Source: a virus | Lineage: Duplodnaviria; Heunggongvirae; Uroviricota; Caudoviricetes | Reading direction: 5' to 3' (one strand) | Virus record (IMG/VR): IMGVR_UViG_2913112809_000002 | Length of the DNA stretch: 64,000 bases | Part shown: piece after piece, positions 9,452 through 35,270 of the stretch | Layout of the letters: each line of letters opens with the position of its first letter | Position numbering within the stretch: the stretch's first letter is position 1 | Program-made: the position numbers and the translations under genes | Notes under the pieces: generated by a model | The model's input: only the letters and a program-made list of their open reading frames with translations | Database searches by the model: none | What the model was told of the DNA's origin: nothing

Positions 9452-9679
9452 TTATGCAGCCAGAAGGTTCTTTTTGCTTATTTCAAGCATTTCGCTTGCT
9501 TGATATTTGCCACCAGAAATCTCTTCGATTTTTGATGCGTATTTAGTTTTCCCAAAAAACTCAGTCTTAGGGAGGAAGCCGTTTTTGAGCCACTTATAGA
9601 CAGCCCTTTCGCTAACTCCACAAGCCTTCGCAACTTCAGGGATGCCGACACCTTTAATCGGCTCATCAAGATTTTGCAT
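9452..9679 (-). CDS. Cro-like repressor (HTH)
   Basis: Divergent from cI; MQNLDEPIKGVGIPEVAKACGVSERAVYKWLKNG...; start set at second Met because upstream Met lies inside operator palindrome. Confidence 0.5.
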   Translation of the reverse strand: MQNLDEPIKGVGIPEVAKACGVSERAVYKWLKNGFLPKTEFFGKTKYASKIEEISGGKYQASEMLEISKKNLLAA

Positions 9680-9757
9680 AGGAATATCCTTTTTCGTACT
9701 TTCAGTACGCATTATGATTGAACTGAAAGTTTTTGCAAGTGCTTTAGTATCGTACTC
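9680..9757. promoter_or_regulatory. OR operator/promoter region (PR/PRM)
   Basis: Perfect palindrome cgtactttcagtacg at 9695..9709 plus half-sites actgaaagt (9722..9730) and cgtac (9751..9755) between cro-like and cI. Confidence 0.55.
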
Positions 9758-10465
9758 ATGGTTCAGAATGAAAAAGTGCGCAAAGAATTCGCCCAGCGGC
9801 TAGCGCAAGCCTGTAAAGAAGCTGGTCTTGATGAACATGGTAGGGGGATGGCCATAGCCCGTGCCCTTTCTCTTTCGTCCAAAGGCGTTAGCAAATGGTT
9901 TAATGCTGAGTCTTTACCGCGTCAGGAAAAAATGAATGCGCTTGCGAAATTTCTAAACGTTGATGTTGTTTGGCTTCAGCACGGCACTTCGTTAAATGGA
10001 GCGAATGATGAAGATACTCTTTCATTTGTTGGCAAATTAAAAAAAGGGTTAGTGCGCGTGGTTGGTGAGGCAATTCTTGGTGTTGATGGTGCCATCGAGA
10101 TGACCGAAGAGCGCGATGGGTGGCTCAAAATTTATAGCGATGATCCTGATGCCTTTGGTCTTCGTGTGAAAGGAGACAGCATGTGGCCCAGAATAAAATC
10201 AGGAGAATATGTACTCATTGAGCCTAACACCAAAGTATTCCCGGGTGATGAGGTGTTTGTCAGAACCATCGAAGGACACAACATGATCAAGGTTCTTGGC
10301 TATGACAGAGATGGAGAATACCAATTTACAAGCATCAACCAGGACCACAGACCAATAACGTTGCCTTATCATCAAGTAGCCAAAGTGGAGTATGTGGCTG
10401 GTATTCTGAAGCAATCTCGCCATCTGGATGACATCGAGGCAAGGGAGTGGCTGAGAGATTCCTGA
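9758..10465 (+). CDS. cI: CI repressor (HTH + S24 LexA-like peptidase)
   Basis: 235 aa; N-terminal HTH, C-terminal GDSM...K autocleavage domain. Confidence 0.9.
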   Translation: MVQNEKVRKEFAQRLAQACKEAGLDEHGRGMAIARALSLSSKGVSKWFNAESLPRQEKMNALAKFLNVDVVWLQHGTSLNGANDEDTLSFVGKLKKGLVRVVGEAILGVDGAIEMTEERDGWLKIYSDDPDAFGLRVKGDSMWPRIKSGEYVLIEPNTKVFPGDEVFVRTIEGHNMIKVLGYDRDGEYQFTSINQDHRPITLPYHQVAKVEYVAGILKQSRHLDDIEAREWLRDS

Positions 10466-10571: not shown

Positions 10572-10928
10572 ATGAGCGATAAAGAGTTTAAAGTACTTAA
10601 TTTTGATGACTTTGCTCATTATTTGAGCACATTGAACGGCGAACAAATTTGTCCAATGTGTATGGAAGAGTCATGGACGCTTTTCACCCCAAACAAGCTT
10701 CCTCCAGAAGACGAGGATAGGTATGTAATAAGTTCTATCCCAGGATCACTTATTTCAAGTAAAAGACCTGAAAAATCAAATCTCTTCTTCAGAAGTTACA
10801 ACAACGATGTCCTCCTGATGCAATGCAGAAATTGTGGATACATGGCATTTTTTAATTATAAAAAAGTCCAAGAAAACCTTGAGTCAGGGGATTATATAAA
10901 AAAAAGAAGATATAGATATGGTGGATGA
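10572..10928 (+). CDS. Hypothetical zinc-ribbon protein (cargo at rexA position)
   Basis: 118 aa, CPMC and CRNC pairs; AT-rich; stop overlaps next start (ATGA). Confidence 0.55.
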   Translation: MSDKEFKVLNFDDFAHYLSTLNGEQICPMCMEESWTLFTPNKLPPEDEDRYVISSIPGSLISSKRPEKSNLFFRSYNNDVLLMQCRNCGYMAFFNYKKVQENLESGDYIKKRRYRYGG

Positions 10929-11410
10929 AAATGACAAATCAGAAGACTGATTTCTTCCGTCCAATGGAGTATGATAACAAATATGAGCAATTTGGTGTTA
11001 TAGAAGCACACAGGAATGGTCGCTCTACTCCGTCATATCAGCCAGGCACCATTGGTAAGGATATCCCGGTTATTATTGCGCATAAGTTAAGCGATCAACC
11101 AGCAGAGGGTGAGTCACAGATGAGCGTAAAATCACTGTCACGTTGGGAGTTTTGGCTAGGGATTTTCACTGCCATTATTGGGATATTTTCCATTGTTGTA
11201 GGAGCAACGTGGACAATTTCTAATAATATCAATGATAAGATTAATGCATCAAGACAAGAGCTAACTGGGAACATCCAATCCAGTCGAGCAGAAATCACGG
11301 CAAGAATTGACAGGCTCGAAGATAAGATGGAGTCTAATTTCAAAGAAACATCATCGAGCCTGTTCAAAATACAGGCAATTCTAGAAGCAAAATCCGACAA
11401 AGAAAAATAA
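10925..11410 (+). CDS. Hypothetical single-pass membrane protein with coiled-coil C-terminus (cargo at rexB position)
   Basis: 161 aa, TM segment WEFWLGIFTAIIGIFSIVVGATW, heptad-like C-terminus; followed by terminator. Confidence 0.55.
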   Translation: MKMTNQKTDFFRPMEYDNKYEQFGVIEAHRNGRSTPSYQPGTIGKDIPVIIAHKLSDQPAEGESQMSVKSLSRWEFWLGIFTAIIGIFSIVVGATWTISNNINDKINASRQELTGNIQSSRAEITARIDRLEDKMESNFKETSSSLFKIQAILEAKSDKEK

Positions 11411-11594: not shown

Positions 11595-11665
11595 ATATTT
11601 CGTAGAGTTAATAAACCACAAAAATTTCGTACCAATAGTTCTTGATAATGTCGAACTATTGGTTC
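11595..11665. promoter_or_regulatory. OL/PL region
   Basis: Half-sites ttcgtag and ttcgtac matching OR half-site ttcgtac; 11-bp inverted repeat accaatagttc/gaactattggt at 11631..11663. Confidence 0.4.
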
Positions 11666-11714
11666 ATTATTATCGCCATCAGCAGGAAGCTGGAAGCCAA
11701 ACGGAACAGATTGG

Positions 11715-11751
11715 CATGCTCTTTAACTTCGATGGGGCGCTGACAAAGCGC
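11715..11751 (+). promoter_or_regulatory. nutL (boxA gctctttaa; boxB gcgctgacaaagcgc, P22-type)
   Basis: boxB hairpin GCGC-TGACAAA-GCGC at 11737..11751 upstream of N. Confidence 0.6.
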
Positions 11752-11870: not shown

Positions 11871-12206
11871 ATGACGGTAATCGTGTACGGAAAATCAACA
11901 TTTGCAGGAAATGCCAAAACTCGCCGTCATGAGCGGCGCAGAAAGCTTGCTATTGAGCGTGATGCTATCTGTAACATCATTGATTCTATCTTCGGCACAG
12001 ATAGTGAGGAACCTGTTCAGGAGGCCCCAAGAAAGCGTTTAAGCCTTTCTGAAAAAGCAATATCACTCGGAAGCCTTCGCTGCAAGAAGGCAGAAGAAGT
12101 CGAGCGTAAACAGAACCGTATTTACTACAGCAAGCCACGCAGTGAAATGGGTGTGACCTGTGTCGGTCGCCAGAAAATGAAATTAGGCAGCAAACCACTT
12201 ATTTGA
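11871..12206 (+). CDS. N: Antiterminator N (P22 gene 24-like arginine-rich motif, lambda-like C-terminus)
   Basis: ARM GNAKTRRHERRRKLAIERD; C-terminus YSKPRSEMGVTCVGRQKMKLGSKPLI resembles lambda N; SD gagga before ATG. Confidence 0.75.
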   Translation: MTVIVYGKSTFAGNAKTRRHERRRKLAIERDAICNIIDSIFGTDSEEPVQEAPRKRLSLSEKAISLGSLRCKKAEEVERKQNRIYYSKPRSEMGVTCVGRQKMKLGSKPLI

Positions 12207-12216
12207 GGACTGATAC

Positions 12217-12459
12217 ATGAGAGTAAAAACTATGGGCGCAAGCCCATTAAGCGGTCGTATTTTTCAAGGAACATTAAACACTGAAAAAGGAATGTGGGTA
12301 GGAAAAAAAGAAGATGTAACCGAACAGGCAGTTAAGGCAGTAACTGAACACCTGATGATAAAAGACCGGAAATATGCATACGAAACGAATGATGGCAAAT
12401 GGGTGATAATAATGCATCAACTGGTTGATGAATTACCAGAAGAGTTTATTGCTGATTAA
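12217..12459 (+). CDS. Hypothetical protein
   Basis: 80-aa ORF directly after N, AT-rich. Confidence 0.4.
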   Translation: MRVKTMGASPLSGRIFQGTLNTEKGMWVGKKEDVTEQAVKAVTEHLMIKDRKYAYETNDGKWVIIMHQLVDELPEEFIAD

Positions 12460-12490
12460 AATTATTTTGGCATAAACAACAGAAGCGAAG

Positions 12491-12688
12491 ATGTTGACAG
12501 TTGGTAAGTCATATTCAACTAAAAATGGAAAGACATTTAGTTGTGAAAAAGATATTGGAGAAATAGACACCATCTTTCCATTTGGTGGATGGGTATACAA
12601 TTCTGATGGAAGCAAAGACAGATTTGCATATTACACCAGAGGAGGTGCTTATAAACCAACCAAATCAGAATATGACTTAATTATTTAG
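12491..12688 (+). CDS. Hypothetical protein
   Basis: 65-aa ORF, AT-rich. Confidence 0.35.
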   Translation: MLTVGKSYSTKNGKTFSCEKDIGEIDTIFPFGGWVYNSDGSKDRFAYYTRGGAYKPTKSEYDLII

Positions 12689-12834
12689 CACAGAGAAGCA
12701 CTGTGTATTCATTCCAACGAGTGAATACACGGAGCAATGTCGCTCGTAACTAAACAGGAGCCGACTTGTTCTGATTATTGGAAATCTTCTTTGCCCTCCA
12801 GTGTGAGGGCAATTTTTTTGACGGAGAAATTATG

Positions 12835-13248
12835 AAAATTACAGATATTCTGGTTAATCCAGATAATTACGACCAATTCAATATCTCTACTAAATCGGTT
12901 GATTTGGGATGTGCAACTGTCAGCGCATGGCTACTTAATGGTAAACAGTTGGATAAATGCCTTGATGCACATATGACGGTTAACAGCTTCCTTGCAGAAA
13001 AGACACACTGGCAAGATGCTGGAGGGAAATATGCTGGATGGCTTGAAAGCATGGGATTTGAATATCAATCTGATGAAGGTTGGTGGAGCCTCATAGCTGT
13101 AACGCCTGAGACAATAGAATGCTTCGTTAAATACTCAAACGACGATGACTATAAACACCAGGTAGATTCTGCGATAGAAAGATATAGAAGAAAATCATTC
13201 AACCACGAAATATCATCAGTTCTTGATTTCATAGAAGTATTCAAATAA
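12835..13248 (+). CDS. Hypothetical protein
   Basis: 137 aa from MKITDILVNPDNYDQ..., SD ggag before ATG; preceded by hairpin and T-run at 12788..12823. Confidence 0.45.
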   Translation, partial: KITDILVNPDNYDQFNISTKSVDLGCATVSAWLLNGKQLDKCLDAHMTVNSFLAEKTHWQDAGGKYAGWLESMGFEYQSDEGWWSLIAVTPETIECFVKYSNDDDYKHQVDSAIERYRRKSFNHEISSVLDFIEVFK

Positions 13249-13331
13249 GCCGCCAAGAGCGGCTTTACCGCATACCAATAATGCTTCACCCGAGGCATTT
13301 CCGTTATGTGTAAATAAATAAGGAGCACACC

Positions 13332-13472
13332 ATGCAATATGTCATTGCAGGGTGGCCTGTTGCTGGCTGCCCTTCCGAATCTTTACTTGAACGAATCACC
13401 CGTAAATTACGTGACGGATGGAAACGCCTTATCGACATACTTAATCAGCCGGGAGTTCCAAAAAATGGATAA
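13332..13472 (+). CDS. cIII: CIII (protease FtsH inhibitor)
   Basis: Manual translation MQYVIAGWPVAGCPSESLLERITRKLRDGWKRLIDILNQPGVPKNG matches lambda CIII. Confidence 0.85.
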   Translation: MQYVIAGWPVAGCPSESLLERITRKLRDGWKRLIDILNQPGVPKNG

Positions 13473-13578
13473 AACACTTATGGCTATCCAGACTAAATTC
13501 ACTATCGCCACTTTTATTGGCGATGAAAAGATGTTTCGTGAGGCCGTCGAAGCCTACAGGAAATGGAGGTCAAAATGA
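13465..13578 (+). CDS. kil: Kil-like host-killing protein
   Basis: MDKTLMAIQTKFTIATFIGDEKMFREAVEAYRKWRSK; overlaps cIII end as in lambda. Confidence 0.55.
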   Translation: MDKTLMAIQTKFTIATFIGDEKMFREAVEAYRKWRSK

Positions 13579-13763
13579 TTCCGGTAGAACTGGCGAAAAC
13601 TCCAGAGTTAAGTCGATTAAAAAGAGAATATCACATTGCTGAGGCTCGTTACTGGCGTAAAGCGGGAGATAAATCAAAGAAACAACTTTGTTTATGGCAG
13701 GCACAAAGAGAGCGCATGAATGAGCGCGAGTTTCTTTCCTCCCCATCCGAATTACCATTCTGA
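13575..13763 (+). CDS. Hypothetical protein
   Basis: ATGA overlap with kil, SD ggagg. Confidence 0.35.
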   Translation: MIPVELAKTPELSRLKREYHIAEARYWRKAGDKSKKQLCLWQAQRERMNEREFLSSPSELPF

Positions 13764-13771
13764 GGCAAATT

Positions 13772-14452
13772 ATGGGAACTGCGACATTAATACTCGGTGA
13801 GTCTGGCACCGGAAAATCAACCAGCATGAGAAATATCAATCCCGAGGAAGCAATACTTATAAAACCAATAGGCAAGCCGCTACCATTTAAATCAAAAGAC
13901 TGGCTTGCATGGGATGCCAGAGCAAAAAAAGGAACCGTAGTTACCACTGACAAATGGGACGTAATAGTTGCCGTAATTAAGCGTGCTCACGAATACGGGA
14001 AAAGAATCGTTATTGTTGATGACTTCCAGTATGTGATGAGCAATGAGTTTATGCGCCGCTCAGAAGAAAAATCGTTTGATAAATTTACTGAGATAGGCCG
14101 CCACGCATGGGAGGTGATTAAGGCTGCACAGGATGCGCCTGATGACCTGAGAGTCTATTTTCTTGCCCATACCGAAGAAACCCCTATGGGGCGTGTGAAA
14201 ATGAAGACTATCGGCAAAATGCTGGACGAGAAAATCACTGTCGAAGGCATGTTTACTATAGTTCTTCGCACTCTTACCCGCGATGACCAGTTCTTTTTCA
14301 CCACGAAAAACAACGGTGCAGACACTGTTAAATCCCCAATGGGAATGTTTGATTCCAATGAGATTGATAACGATCTCTCTTTCGTCGATGCCACTGTTTG
14401 TGATTACTACGGCATCAATAATGTTCATCAAATTAAGGAAAACGCCGCATGA
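13772..14452 (+). CDS. P-loop ATPase (AAA_24/Sak4-like recombination-associated ATPase)
   Basis: Walker A GESGTGKS, Walker B RIVIVDDF; position of recombination module. Confidence 0.55.
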   Translation: MGTATLILGESGTGKSTSMRNINPEEAILIKPIGKPLPFKSKDWLAWDARAKKGTVVTTDKWDVIVAVIKRAHEYGKRIVIVDDFQYVMSNEFMRRSEEKSFDKFTEIGRHAWEVIKAAQDAPDDLRVYFLAHTEETPMGRVKMKTIGKMLDEKITVEGMFTIVLRTLTRDDQFFFTTKNNGADTVKSPMGMFDSNEIDNDLSFVDATVCDYYGINNVHQIKENAA

Positions 14453-15036
14453 GCAACGTGATTTTTACTTATAACGAAGAAGCAGCACTGACCGCAGGAC
14501 AAGGTGGTTTTATTAATGAAACTGGCGCTCATATTATTACCATTACTGAAGCAGAACTAAAGCAATCAGAAAAAGGAGCCAAATTTATTGAGTTTTCTGG
14601 AGAATCCGACGACGGACGTAAAATCCAATATCTTAGCGTTTGTGTTCAGAAAAATGACGGCACGGAAAACAAATTTGGCGCAAATGTCGTTCACGCCATG
14701 ATGGGGTGTGCCGGGATTGGGCAATTAACGCAACATATGGTTTCCGCCAGTAAATTTGTTGCACCTGAATTTCATGGAAAGAAAATCGGGTTAGTGCTCC
14801 AGAAAGTATTAACCACAAACAAAAAGACTGGCGCAGACAGCTACCAGATGGAAATACGCATCCCGTTTATTGCACAAACAGGTCAAACCCTTAAAGAAAA
14901 GGCGGAAGGCAAGCAACCAGAAACTATCGCCAACATGGTTGCCAGCCTCAAAGATAAAGACAATCGCTCTAAAAACGTAAGCCAGAATCATGCAGATGAT
15001 TATGGTTACAGCCAGAACGATTACCCTCCTTTCTGA
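14449..15036 (+). CDS. Hypothetical protein (DUF669-like partner of AAA_24 ATPase, by recollection)
   Basis: 195 aa, translationally coupled to the ATPase. Confidence 0.4.
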   Translation: MSNVIFTYNEEAALTAGQGGFINETGAHIITITEAELKQSEKGAKFIEFSGESDDGRKIQYLSVCVQKNDGTENKFGANVVHAMMGCAGIGQLTQHMVSASKFVAPEFHGKKIGLVLQKVLTTNKKTGADSYQMEIRIPFIAQTGQTLKEKAEGKQPETIANMVASLKDKDNRSKNVSQNHADDYGYSQNDYPPF

Positions 15037-15059
15037 TTATTGAAAATAAGGCTCCCATT

Positions 15060-15356
15060 ATGCCAGCGCCTCTGTATGGTGCGGATGACCCGCGCCGCTG
15101 TTCCGGCAATTCCGTATTGGAGGTGCTGGATAAATTCAGAAAAAACTACGACCTGATAATGTCGCTACCGCAGGAAACGAAAGAGGAAAAGGAATTTCGC
15201 CATTGTATATGGCTTGCAGAGAAAGAAGAACGCGAGCGAATTTACCAGACATTAATCCGACCATTCCGCAAAGCCACATATACCCACTTCCCTGAATATA
15301 TCGACTCGCGCCTACGTAATTACCGCTCACGCTATGGCGCTATCAGTAATGACTGA
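15060..15356 (+). CDS. Hypothetical protein
   Basis: 98-aa ORF. Confidence 0.35.
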
Positions 15357-15543
15357 GGAATTTACCATGAGAGGACTTGCATACAATCCCGGCATTCTTC
15401 CGGCAGAAATGATTATTCGCCAACGCGTAAAGCCAATGCCATCAAGAGAGGAATTACTTAAGAGAAATAGTTTCGGTTCTGTTAACGACAACAGATATCT
15501 TGAAATGATTTTGAGGAGTAAGAAGGATTATGTCAAAAAATGA
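15334..15543 (+). CDS. Hypothetical protein
   Basis: 69-aa ORF. Confidence 0.3.
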
Positions 15544-16108
15544 CATTTCATATGAATACCTCATTAGCAACATTCACTACGATAAAGAAACTGGGGTTTT
15601 CAAGAAGATAATTAAATCAAATAATGGGGATATAATTGGTTTCAAACCAACTGGCTGTACGCACTCGATGGGATACATAAGGATATATATTAATAAAAAA
15701 TGGTATTTAGCGCACAGACTAGCTTGGTTATATGTTACCGGGAAATGGCCAGTAAATGTAATTGATCACATCAACAGAAATAAAGCTGACAACAGGTTTA
15801 TTAACCTACGAGATGTCTCCAGTAGGGAAAACAATAGCAATACAAGTAGAAATAAAGGAACTGAAATAGGCACAGAAAGGTGTGCTTATGGATGGAGAGC
15901 ATACATAGGTGTTAATGGAAAACTACATCACCTTGGCTCATATGCAACATGTGATGGTGCAAAATATGCGTATGCTCTAGCAAAATATCAAGTAGAAATA
16001 TATGGTTACCTGCGCCCCACACCAATCGATTGCAGAAAATTAAATTACGGAAACAGGGGGAATCGTAATGGAAATCCTAAATCAAACCGTCGCAAGTTCC
16101 ATCAGTGA
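15530..16108 (+). CDS. HNH homing endonuclease
   Basis: [16 protein letters not shown]...[20 protein letters not shown] motif; AT-rich insertion-like. Confidence 0.75.
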
Positions 16109-32547: not shown

Positions 32548-33847
32548 TCTCCCGCATATTGCCAGTATGGCCTTTAATGAGCCGCTGATGCTTGAACCCG
32601 CCTATGCGCGGGTTTTCTTTTGTGCGCTTGCAGGCCAGCTTGGGATCAGCCGCCTGACGGATGCGGTGTCCGGCGACAGCCTGACTGCCGGAGAGGCACC
32701 CGCGACGCTGGCGTTATCCGGTGATGATGGCGGGCCACGACAGGCCCGCAGTTATCAGGTCATGAACGGCATCGCCGTGCTGCCGGTGTCCGGCACGCTG
32801 GTCAGCCGGACGCGGGCGCTGCAGCCGTATTCGGGGATGACCGGTTACAACGGCATTATCGCCCGTCTGCAACAGGCTGCCAGTGACCCGATGGTGGACG
32901 GCATTCTGCTCGATATGGATACGCCAGGCGGAATGGTGGCGGGGGCATTTGACTGCGCTGACATCATCGCCCGTGTGCGTGACATAAAGCCGGTATGGGC
33001 GCTGGCCAACGACATGAACTGCAGTGCAGGTCAGCTGCTTGCCAGTGCCGCCTCCCGGCGTCTGGTCACGCAGACCGCACGGACAGGCTCCATCGGCGTC
33101 ATGATGGCTCACAGTAATTACGGTGCTGCGCTGGAGAAACAGGGCGTGGAAATCACGCTAATTTACAGCGGCAGCCATAAGGTGGATGGCAACCCCTACA
33201 GCCATCTTCCGGATGACGTCCGGGAGACACTGCAGTCCCGGATGGATGCAACCCGCCAGATGTTTGCGCAGAAGGTGTCGGCATATACCGGCCTGTCCGT
33301 GCAGGCTGTGCTGGATACCGAGGCTGCAGTGTACAGCGGTCAGGAGGCCATTGATGCCGGACTGGCTGATGAACTTGTTAACAGCACCGATGCGATCACC
33401 GTCATGCGTGATGCACTGGATGCACGTAAATCCCGTCTCTCAGGAGGGCGAATGACCAAAGAGACTCAATCAACAACTGTTTCAGCCACTGCTTCGCAGG
33501 CTGACATCACCACCGTGGTGCAAGCGACGGAGGGCGAAAACGCCAGCGCGGCGCAGCCGGACGTGAACGCGCAGATCACCGCAGCGGTTGCGGCAGAAAA
33601 CAGCCGCATTATGGGGATCCTCAACTGTGAGGAGGCCCACGGACGCGAAGAACAGGCACGCGTGCTGGCAGAAACCCCCGGAATGACCGTGGAAACGGCC
33701 CGCCGCATTCTGACCGCAGCACCACAGAGTGCACAGGCGCGCAGTGACACTGCGCTGGATCGTCTGATGCAGGGGGCACCGGCACCGCTGGCTGCAGGTA
33801 ACCCGGCATCTGATGCCGTTAACGATTTGCTGAACACACCAGTGTAA
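32528..33847 (+). CDS. C: Capsid assembly protease C (Nu3 scaffold nested at 3' end)
   Basis: GTG start giving (M)TAELRNLPHIASMAFNEPLMLEPAYARVFF... as lambda gpC. Confidence 0.8.
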
Positions 33848-33856
33848 GGGATGTTT

Positions 33857-34189
33857 ATGACGAGCAAAGAAACCTTTACCCATTACCAGCCGCTGGGCAA
33901 CAGTGACCCGGCTCATACCGCAACCGCGCCCGGCGGATTGAGTGCGAAAGCGCCTGCAATGACCCCGCTGATGCTGGACACCGCCACCCGTAAGCTGGTT
34001 GCGTGGGATGGCACCACCGACGGTGCTGCCGTTGGCATTCTGGCGGTCGCTGCTGACCAGACCAGCACCACGCTGACGTTCTACAAGTCCGGCACGTTCC
34101 GTTATGAGGATGTGCTCTGGCCGGAGGCTGCCAGCGACGAGACGAAAAAACGGACCGCGTTTGCCGGAACGGCAATCAGCATCGTTTAA
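33857..34189 (+). CDS. D: Capsid decoration protein D
   Basis: [41 protein letters not shown]... Confidence 0.9.
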
Positions 34190-34244
34190 CTTTACCCTTC
34201 ATCACTAAAGGCCGCCTGTGCGGCTTTTTTTACGGGATTTTTTT

Positions 34245-35270
34245 ATGTCGATGTACACAACCGCCCAGCTGCTGGCGGCAAATGAGCAGAAATTTAAGTT
34301 TGATCCGCTGTTTCTGCGTCTCTTTTTCCGTGAGAGCTATCCCTTCACCACGGAGAAAGTCTATCTCTCACAAATTCCGGGACTGGTAAACATGGCGCTG
34401 TACGTTTCGCCGATTGTTTCCGGTGAGGTTATCCGCTCCCGTGGCGGCTCCACCTCTGAATTTACGCCGGGATATGTCAAACCCAAGCATGAAGTGAATC
34501 CGCAGATGACCCTGCGTCGCCTGCCGGATGAAGATCCGCAGAATCTGGCGGACCCGGCTTACCGTCGCCGTCGCATCATCATGCAGAACATGCGTGACGA
34601 AGAGCTGGCCATTGCCCAGGTCGAAGAGATGCAGGCAGTTTCTGCCGTGCTTAAGGGCAAATACACCATGACCGGTGAAGCCTTCGATCCGGTTGAGGTG
34701 GATATGGGCCGCAGTGCGGCGAATAACATCACGCAGTCCGGCGGCACGGAGTGGAGCAAGCGTGACAAGTCCACGTATGACCCGACCGACGATATCGAAA
34801 CTTACGCGCTGAACGCCAGCGGTGTGGTGAATATCATCGTGTTTGACCCGAAAGGCTGGGCGCTGTTCCGTTCCTTCAAGGCCGTCAGGGAGAAGCTGGA
34901 TACCCGTCGCGGCTCTCATTCCGAGCTGGAGACAGCGGTGAAAGACCTGGGTAAAGCGGTGTCCTATAAGGGGATGTATGGCGATGTGGCCATCGTCGTG
35001 TATTCCGGACAGTACGTGGAAAACGGTGTCAAAAAGAACTTCCTGCCGGACAACACGATGGTGCTTGGGAACACTCAGGCACGCGGTCTGCGCACCTATG
35101 GCTGTATTCAGGATGCGGATGCATTGAGTGAGGGTATTAATGCGTCTCCTCGTTATCCGAAAAACTGGAAGACATCCGGCGATCCGGCGCGTGAGTTCAC
35201 CATGATTCAGTCAGCACCGCTGATGCTGCTGGCTGATCCTGATGAGTTCGTGTCCGTACAACTGGCGTAA
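34245..35270 (+). CDS. E: Major capsid protein E
   Basis: MSMYTTAQLLAANEQKFKFDPLFLRLFFRESYPF... Confidence 0.95.
   Translation: MSMYTTAQLLAANEQKFKFDPLFLRLFFRESYPFTTEKVYLSQIPGLVNMALYVSPIVSGEVIRSRGGSTSEFTPGYVKPKHEVNPQMTLRRLPDEDPQNLADPAYRRRRIIMQNMRDEELAIAQVEEMQAVSAVLKGKYTMTGEAFDPVEVDMGRSAANNITQSGGTEWSKRDKSTYDPTDDIETYALNASGVVNIIVFDPKGWALFRSFKAVREKLDTRRGSHSELETAVKDLGKAVSYKGMYGDVAIVVYSGQYVENGVKKNFLPDNTMVLGNTQARGLRTYGCIQDADALSEGINASPRYPKNWKTSGDPAREFTMIQSAPLMLLADPDEFVSVQLA

Follow-up and report, generated by a model that had tools for sequence, protein, structure and literature searches.

What do the small genes between the antiterminator gene N and cIII of a lambdoid phage do, and why does a strong hairpin followed by a terminator stand among them? 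The question is raised by the virus record IMGVR_UViG_2913112809_000002 (Caudoviricetes), of which we analysed a stretch of 64,000 nucleotides (nt), hereafter the window. Its positions 12,217 to 13,248 hold three open reading frames (ORF1, ORF2 and ORF3) on the plus strand, which a preliminary description had read as anti-restriction or exclusion genes in the slot of ral, sieB and ea10, the last of them set apart by the hairpin and terminator for independent regulation. We find that this part of the PL operon is very probably an accessory segment in which three exchangeable cassettes lie around a fixed non-coding island, the gene of the small RNA (sRNA) PreS. The location itself had been recognised correctly, as Pfam matches to N on one flank and to cIII and kil on the other enclose the segment, which is thus the N-to-cIII stretch, and the conserved sequences on either side of ORF3 are those that enclose ea10 in lambda. 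The segment is indeed AT-rich, with a G+C content of 37.6% against 49.9% for the whole window. The three ORFs of 80, 65 and 137 amino acids announced earlier are all present, except that the last one has 138 amino acids; its mechanical call begins at a TTG at 12778, within the terminator, and the gene proper at the ATG at 12832.

The hairpin and terminator belong together with a gene already described in lambda. By BLAST, positions 12698-12818 of the window are 99.2% identical, over 121 nt and without gaps, to lambda 33925-34045, which in the lambda annotation is the spacer between ral (34087-34287) and ea10 (33536-33904). The LPR1 or PreS gene has been located between ea10 and ral in lambda, with its 3' end at the terminator tL2a (bioRxiv 10.1101/2024.10.31.621285). 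In the same study PreS is described as an sRNA that depends on Hfq, has a length of about 88 nt, is trimmed to about 68 nt and is produced only during the lytic cycle; it pairs upstream of dnaN, exposing the ribosome-binding site (a roughly 4-fold activation of dnaN is reported), while alaS is repressed, and loss of the gene or of its seed results in less phage DNA replication and in 2- to 4-fold fewer plaques. The 5' end, seed, 3' end and M1 site were placed on the window by means of the cloning and mutagenesis primers of that paper. The 5' end at GAGCAATG corresponds to window position 12732 and the 3' end to the T-run, both identical to lambda except for the changes in terminator and tail given below. 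The seed TTGTTCTGATTATTGGAA, mapped with primers P838 and P970, lies at 12766-12783 and is identical to that of lambda; it consists of the 18 nt deleted in the lpr1-delta-seed mutant and includes the CTG mutated in M1. Across hairpin, sRNA body, seed and terminator 121 of 122 nt agree with lambda, the length from the published 5' end to the U-run is the same 88 nt, and in both phages the element sits between N and cIII in the PL operon. Unlike lambda, the window has an A instead of G at 12811, so that a U-A pair replaces U-G at the foot of the terminator stem, and a tail of seven U in place of U6A (T7 against T6A in the DNA). ORF2 and ORF3 flank the element where lambda has ral and ea10. With its identity to lambda, its intact seed and its G+C stem and poly-U 3' end (tL2a, the Hfq-binding module), the element is, as far as sequence can tell, the known PreS/LPR1 gene ending at tL2a. 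A search of Rfam gave no family match over the PreS region.

The structural elements reported earlier were found again, one of them in a slightly different place. The perfect 9-bp hairpin, previously placed at 12695..12722, is real, but its arms occupy 12703-12711 and 12722-12730, a shift of 8 nt downstream. With one G-U pair included, the stem reaches 12 bp (12703-12714 with 12719-12730). The hairpin ends 1 nt before the 5' end of PreS, is identical in an alignment of five differently flanked loci, and was kept in the published delta-lpr1 deletion, as primer P969 shows. This hairpin may mark a processing site or guard the 3' end of the upstream mRNA. The terminator-like hairpin with its T-run was confirmed as an 8-bp stem with five G-C pairs (12791-12798 with 12805-12812) followed by T7 at 12813-12819. 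As a whole, the 132 nt at 12689-12820 have a folding energy of -49.3 kcal/mol (z = -5.8 versus shuffles), and PreS itself has one of -29.2 kcal/mol (z = -3.9). The block is unannotated in most of the 40 phage records listed; it is called a terminator in HK106 and is covered by a "hypothetical protein" in two records. For annotation this means that a hairpin plus terminator of about 120 bp between N and cIII is to be read as the PreS gene and not as a signal specific to the adjoining gene.

In 325 phage records, among them lambda, HK97-like, Stx-converting, SfI and P22-like Salmonella phages, the PreS block (122 nt) is conserved with at least 95% identity. Among 168 loci, homology to the window has its left edge at 12698 in 103 and its right edge at 12816-12818 in 97; otherwise it runs on into ORF3. 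With the block as the anchor, we surveyed 73 viral contigs and clustered the adjoining ORFs. The first gene downstream of PreS is ea10 in 26 contigs; in about 25 cIII follows directly or there is no gene, and about 11 different first ORFs were counted. The last gene upstream is ral in 21 contigs and otherwise belongs to at least 15 other families, among them that of ORF1 (DUF7446) in three contigs and that of ORF2 in two. In IMGVR_UViG_2740892016_000006 (L140) a gene of 107 amino acids directly upstream of PreS begins with MEALVVERSEDGYWT, which is the N-terminus of orf184. The latter triggers the P4 gop-beta-cII cell-death system and shares an accessory region with ral (Silas et al., bioRxiv 10.1101/2023.04.06.535777). 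By this N-terminus the gene in L140 is orf184, which places a published immunity-related accessory gene in the slot of ORF1 and ORF2.

The borders of the individual cassettes in the window are sharp. The 20-nt linker that follows ORF1 (12465-12484) sits just downstream of ral in lambda-type phages, where it runs into the PreS block. The 213-bp insertion behind it, which carries ORF2, is absent from E. coli EM10-18-28 and a Stx1 phage (L001, L003), the linker there abutting the PreS block; phage 2G7b has it between ral and PreS. On the other side ORF3 starts 12 nt past the terminator in 20 of 22 lambdoid IMG/VR loci, likewise in E. coli EM10-18-28, and it ends 1 base before the lambda-type block starting at 13249, which leads into cIII (window 13249-13567 against lambda 33228-33544, 92.5% identity by BLAST). 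The small G+C hairpin at the start of that block may correspond to lambda tL2b. The sequence bordering each cassette is shared with phages in which that place is taken by other cassettes or is empty. From these alignments we conclude that the PreS island is fixed, that the slot upstream of it, after N, is taken by ORF1 and ORF2, and the downstream one, before the cIII leader, by ORF3. Downstream of PreS cassettes also occur in tandem, ea10 then ORF3 in L020 (3077-3914) and a gene of 82 amino acids then ORF3 in L009 (3195-3914), so this slot is able to hold two. ORF3 as a strict replacement allele of ea10 was ruled out by the tandem arrangement in L020. The two genes are alike in following directly after tL2a and preceding the cIII leader, in their size (122 and 138 amino acids for Ea10 and ORF3) and in that the function of both is unknown, but they are not related: hhalign of ORF3 with Ea10 (DUF2528) gave a probability of 1% (E = 0.057 over 19 columns). 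The exact ORF1, ORF2 and ORF3 proteins are all present in Escherichia sp. E4742, the likely source of the window, and the exact order ORF1-ORF2-PreS-ORF3 was found neither among 5426 complete E. coli genomes nor in the phage collection. Sequence from the wider segment, chiefly PreS and the cIII leader, matches 2239 of these genomes.

The layout is that of an N-antiterminated PL operon, for which an N gene, a candidate nut site upstream of it and a terminator downstream of it were found. We take boxA and boxB at 11717-11751 to be the nutL elements by their likeness to P22 nut sites. The P22-type boxB GCGCTGACAAAGCGC agrees with the P22-type arginine-rich motif of N. Between 11400 and 13800 tL2a is the sole intrinsic-terminator match on the plus strand. 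As the first intrinsic terminator after the likely PL it would divide the operon, ORF1 and ORF2 being expressed together with N and ORF3 onward by read-through. Transcription from PL (about 11670) would cross nutL, N, ORF1 and ORF2 and, before N builds up, halt at tL2a. The 3' end of the halted transcript would then be trimmed to the 88-nt and 68-nt forms of PreS, bound by Hfq, and PreS, if it acts as published for lambda, would open the dnaN ribosome-binding site, repress alaS and raise phage DNA replication. Polymerase modified by N at nutL would pass tL2a and reach ORF3, cIII, kil and the recombination genes. We infer that ORF1 and ORF2 are immediate-early and ORF3 delayed-early, two temporal classes with no promoters of their own.

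This bears on the proposal that the hairpin and terminator insulate the last gene. PreS and tL2a are present in the 325 phages irrespective of which gene comes next. From the T-run to the ATG of ORF3 there are 12 nt, which also hold its Shine-Dalgarno sequence (GGAG at 12823-12826) and leave no room for a promoter, and a promoter scan found 6 promoter-like sites where 5.5 were expected in shuffled sequence, no excess. Independent regulation of ORF3 is thus not borne out; what survives of it is the boundary itself, as the probable limit between the two temporal classes.

Remote homology searches and structure prediction, which the preliminary description had suggested, told us part of what the proteins are. 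The statement that they have no recognisable domains does not hold for ORF1, which matches the Pfam family DUF7446 (PF24233; E = 6.6e-26; 90.4 bits, the cut-off being 24.1; residues 4-71 aligned to positions 2-69 of the 70-position model), and all three fall into PHROG families of unknown function. ORF1 is a plain full-length member of DUF7446/phrog_1578 with no distinguishing feature; the function of the family is unknown, and a literature search on DUF7446 and the PHROG identifiers found no mention of them. The gene is an upstream-slot cassette, at the position of lambda sieB and ral, with a Shine-Dalgarno sequence (GAGGA) about 7 nt ahead of its ATG. Its family comprises 40 clusters in Escherichia, Salmonella, Klebsiella, Yersinia and Aeromonas, and homologues were found in 283 phage records, nine of them P22-like (80-90% identity) and about 270 virulent Vi01/Det7-like and related phages (about 49%), as well as in 45 of the 5426 E. 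coli genomes. A match of ORF1 to the PRC-barrel (E = 0.2-0.5) was dropped, as it showed no gain with a 19-sequence profile.

ORF3 matches phrog_8967 over its full length (E = 2.1e-86), and its 55 aligned relatives all fall into this PHROG too. A word-indexed search found 10 clusters of relatives and an exhaustive profile search 62 representatives at the 50% clustering level. The family ranges from temperate lambdoid prophages and other temperate phages to virulent rV5-like myoviruses, with homologues of 64-66% identity in 115 virulent rV5-like phages; ORF3 was detected in 37 of the 5426 E. coli genomes. In close copies 24 of 40 substitutions fall on the third codon position. The family motif reads D-W-G-G-x-Y-A-x-W-L ... 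G-I-x(3)-T-D-N-G-W-W-S-x-x-A-V-x-P-x-N-I-x-x-F, and Y67, L71 and W84 are invariant in the alignment; the enterobacterial clade has about 17 additional residues (positions 19-37) that phrog_8967 at large lacks, and DAGG where the wider family has DWGG. An AlphaFold2 model built with the 55-sequence alignment is confident (predicted local distance difference test score, pLDDT, 96.8; predicted template-modelling score 0.88) and shows six helices with a small beta element; with only 9 close sequences the model was poor (pLDDT 54.9). The confident model has no match among known or solved folds. The conserved positions are chiefly Trp, Tyr, Gly, Leu and Ala, the polar ones being Asp and Asn only, and the alignment shows no catalytic-type constellation of residues. 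Since the conserved residues are aromatic or small and not catalytic, ORF3 is probably a binding protein. It is conceivable, though we hold it only tentatively, that it represents an unstudied family of early proteins with a compact and mostly helical fold which bind a conserved host factor via the invariant Trp/Tyr-rich motif D-W/A-G-G-x-Y-A-x-W-L ... G-W-W-S. This factor could be a component of a defence system or of the replication or cell-cycle machinery. If this were true the ORF3 family would be a new class of counter-defence or host-takeover effector, and ORF1 could be a second case.

A different role for ORF3 is suggested by its neighbours. More distant members of its family are found in early regions of other phages, where genes for Erf, RecT and SSB lie nearby, as do those for a predicted replicative helicase and predicted replication proteins (these two judged from sequence). 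These neighbours, together with the constant distance of 12 nt from the PreS terminator, could mean that ORF3 is a replication or recombination accessory, a helical protein of DnaD-like or replisome-organiser-like type that would aid phage replication along with PreS. The linkage to PreS holds equally for ea10 and the other slot cassettes, however, and the rV5-like homologues lie among unrelated small genes and not in a replication module, and so we regard this role as improbable. In one rV5-like contig (L029, 3501-5508) the homologue is surrounded by a group of small unknown genes, and a Macro-domain protein is encoded about 1.1 kb away. In the 114-kb contig IMGVR_UViG_3300009506_000005 (L036, 3971-6126) a protein of 331 amino acids has an ORF3-like N-terminal domain and an unrecognised C-terminal half; a gene for an RtcB RNA ligase follows directly and RecT is encoded upstream. 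The longer family members (P0037, P0046, P0052 and P0066; 179-331 amino acids) showed no recognisable fused domain, and a profile search of genome contigs with an alignment of distant members returned no confirmed locus.

What the three genes do for the phage was approached from the functions known at this location. The earlier proposal that they are the counterparts of ral, sieB and ea10, serving anti-restriction or superinfection exclusion, has their position in its favour, as well as the acidic character of ORF3 (isoelectric point 4.75) and the known occupants of the upstream slot, ral (anti-restriction) and orf184 (the trigger of gop-beta-cII), both of which engage host immunity. The searches did not bear it out. 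DUF7446 was the only Pfam family matched by ORF1, ORF2 or ORF3 at E <= 1, hence there was no match to Ral, SieB or Ea10/DUF2528. NCBIfam gave no match for the three proteins, and neither did the PDB, searched with single sequences and with profiles. PADLOC-DB returned nothing for ORF2 or ORF3 and for ORF1 only a weak match to DndE (E = 0.0082, 14.8 bits). None of the three resembles Ral, and they cluster apart from the lambda ral allele in the PreS-anchored survey. As to SieB, whose gene in lambda is opposite to the PL strand, no similarity was found for the three plus-strand ORFs, nor among the five minus-strand ORFs of the segment (45-62 amino acids), which also lack any Pfam or PHROG match. 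The combination of a strongly acidic protein and a fold like the solved mimics, which marks DNA-mimic anti-restriction proteins of the Ocr and ArdA type, was not seen in any of them. The three peptides had no match in the supplements of two accessory-gene screens, though these supplements consist of models, so the genes may have been among those screened. Together with the occurrence of ORF3 and ea10 in tandem, with the wide presence of the PreS terminator noted above and with the kin of ORF1 and ORF3 in virulent phages, these results make it unlikely that the three genes are equivalents of ral, sieB and ea10 with an insulated last member.

Even less probable, in our view, is that the prophage expresses any of the ORFs as lysogenic-conversion "morons" for defence or exclusion. 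Their G+C content of 33-38% and their cassette-like mobility would suit such genes, and lambda sieB in this very region is expressed from the prophage. Against it stand the chance number of promoter-like sites, the position of all three ORFs on the PL strand downstream of N, and the searches of PADLOC (no significant match) and of the minus-strand ORFs already described. Moreover the families of ORF1 and ORF3 are conserved in strictly virulent phage groups, where protection of a lysogen would be senseless. Because both families are kept in such phages, a role in lytic growth is favoured and lysogen protection disfavoured. The occupants known for the slot elsewhere, ral and orf184, deal with host immunity, and the conserved residues of ORF3 suggest binding and not catalysis. 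We therefore lean towards the view that the products of ORF1, ORF2 and ORF3 are small proteins which work by binding, not as enzymes, and whose targets in lytic growth belong to the host, be it for counter-defence or for host takeover; that they serve counter-defence specifically is a narrower guess, in which we place less than even trust.

Several observations weigh against this picture and should be kept in view. The proposal of counter-defence or host takeover draws on location and distribution, there being no homologue of known function and no fold match. Expression of PreS, its binding to Hfq and its effect on dnaN are predicted here from sequence identity to lambda. The putative immediate-early status of ORF1 and ORF2 presupposes that no Rho-dependent terminator lies between N and tL2a, the scan having covered intrinsic terminators. 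Close copies of ORF1 have 25 non-synonymous against 13 synonymous variable sites. Finally ORF2, which has a PHROG family of its own (phrog_15499, E = 7e-48), shows almost no diversity and is preceded by a weak Shine-Dalgarno sequence, and two of the three E. coli matches listed carry no gene annotation at this place. It is a near-orphan: 5.8 billion sequences contained one cluster at 90% identity plus a fragment, and it was seen in 4 phage records, its cassette in 8 of the 5426 E. coli genomes. Its variable sites number six, three synonymous and three non-synonymous, which is uninformative. These features, to which the lack of Pfam, NCBIfam and PDB matches may be added, would also be expected if ORF2 were not a gene at all but a non-coding or decayed insertion, with ORF1 and ORF3 the only coding cassettes. 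The frame, however, spans 198 of the 213 inserted bases and is open at 64-65 amino acids in most of the 37 members of its cluster, which together occur on more than 900 contigs; in DNA of 33% G+C a frame of 65 codons would be improbable by chance, and the PHROG match argues in the same direction. We consider a non-coding ORF2 rather unlikely and keep it as the third cassette.

The segment compares well with the accessory region around ral (Silas et al., 10.1101/2023.04.06.535777): two slots lie on the same conserved anchors and small AT-rich early genes are exchanged in them, with the difference that ORF1, ORF2 and ORF3 have no detectable sequence similarity to ral, orf184 or ea10. PreS and tL2a were known before, the region is a recognised accessory region and its layout is ordinarily mosaic. 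The current understanding of lambdoid phages is unchanged by our findings. Cassette exchange in this lambdoid region is textbook mosaicism. ORF1, ORF2 and ORF3 are new, uncharacterised members of the lambdoid accessory genes. Among them ORF3 stands out: its family is moderately widespread, and the confident model shows no known fold, although it is one of many such phage genes. Being conserved across temperate and virulent lineages, ORF1 and ORF3 are reasonable candidates for screens for counter-defence or host takeover, and the two slots delimited by the near-invariant PreS block and the cIII leader can be mined for further small early genes. The coordinates are collected in Table 1.

Table 1. 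Features of the early region, in window coordinates
Feature	Position	Strand	Basis or remark
cro-like gene	9452-9712	minus	
cI	9758-10465		
PL-like promoter TTGATA-17-CATTAT	11642-11670	+	promoter scan
nutL: boxA-like TGCTCTTTAAC; P22-type boxB GCGCTGACAAAGCGC	11717-11727; 11737-11751	+	read from sequence
antiterminator N, P22/H-19B type, arginine-rich motif GNAKTRRHERRRKLAIER	11871-12206	+	PF25694 N_peptide, E = 2.8e-26; phrog_271
ORF1, 80 amino acids	12217-12459	+	DUF7446 / phrog_1578
conserved 20-nt linker TTTTGGCATAAACAACAGAA	12465-12484	+	BLAST blocks, alignment
213-bp insertion cassette	12485-12697	+	nearly filled by ORF2
ORF2, 65 amino acids	12491-12688	+	phrog_15499
12-bp hairpin	12703-12730	+	loop CAAC
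PreS (LPR1) sRNA, 88 nt	12732-12819	+	identity to lambda; primers of the PreS paper
ORF3, 138 amino acids	12832-13248	+	phrog_8967
small G+C hairpin AAGCCGC/GCGGCTT then TACC	13247-13265	+	start of conserved lambda-type block into cIII
cIII thermoregulator RNA	13319-13377	+	Rfam RF01804, 86.4 bits, E = 4.9e-21; overlaps cIII start
cIII	13332-13472	+	PF02061, E = 1.7e-29
kil	13465-13578	+	PF06301, E = 8.4e-22

Two other parts of the window caught our attention. Between cI and PL, at the position of rexA and rexB, 10572-11410 holds two unknown genes with a G+C content of 35-40%. The first encodes 118 amino acids with paired CxxC motifs (phrog_4293), and the second 161 amino acids with one predicted transmembrane helix (phrog_24865) and a weak PADLOC match to a "2TM effector" (E = 0.012). 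It is plausible that the two are an exclusion pair expressed from the prophage. The recombination module (13563-16108) is unlike that of lambda: it contains a small phrog_1723 "recombinase" gene, a Sak4-like AAA_24 ATPase (13772-14452), an SSB-like phrog_743 protein (14449-15036), a P22-type anti-RecBCD protein, Abc2 (15060-15356), and an HNH_3 endonuclease (15530-16108) in a stretch of about 35% G+C.

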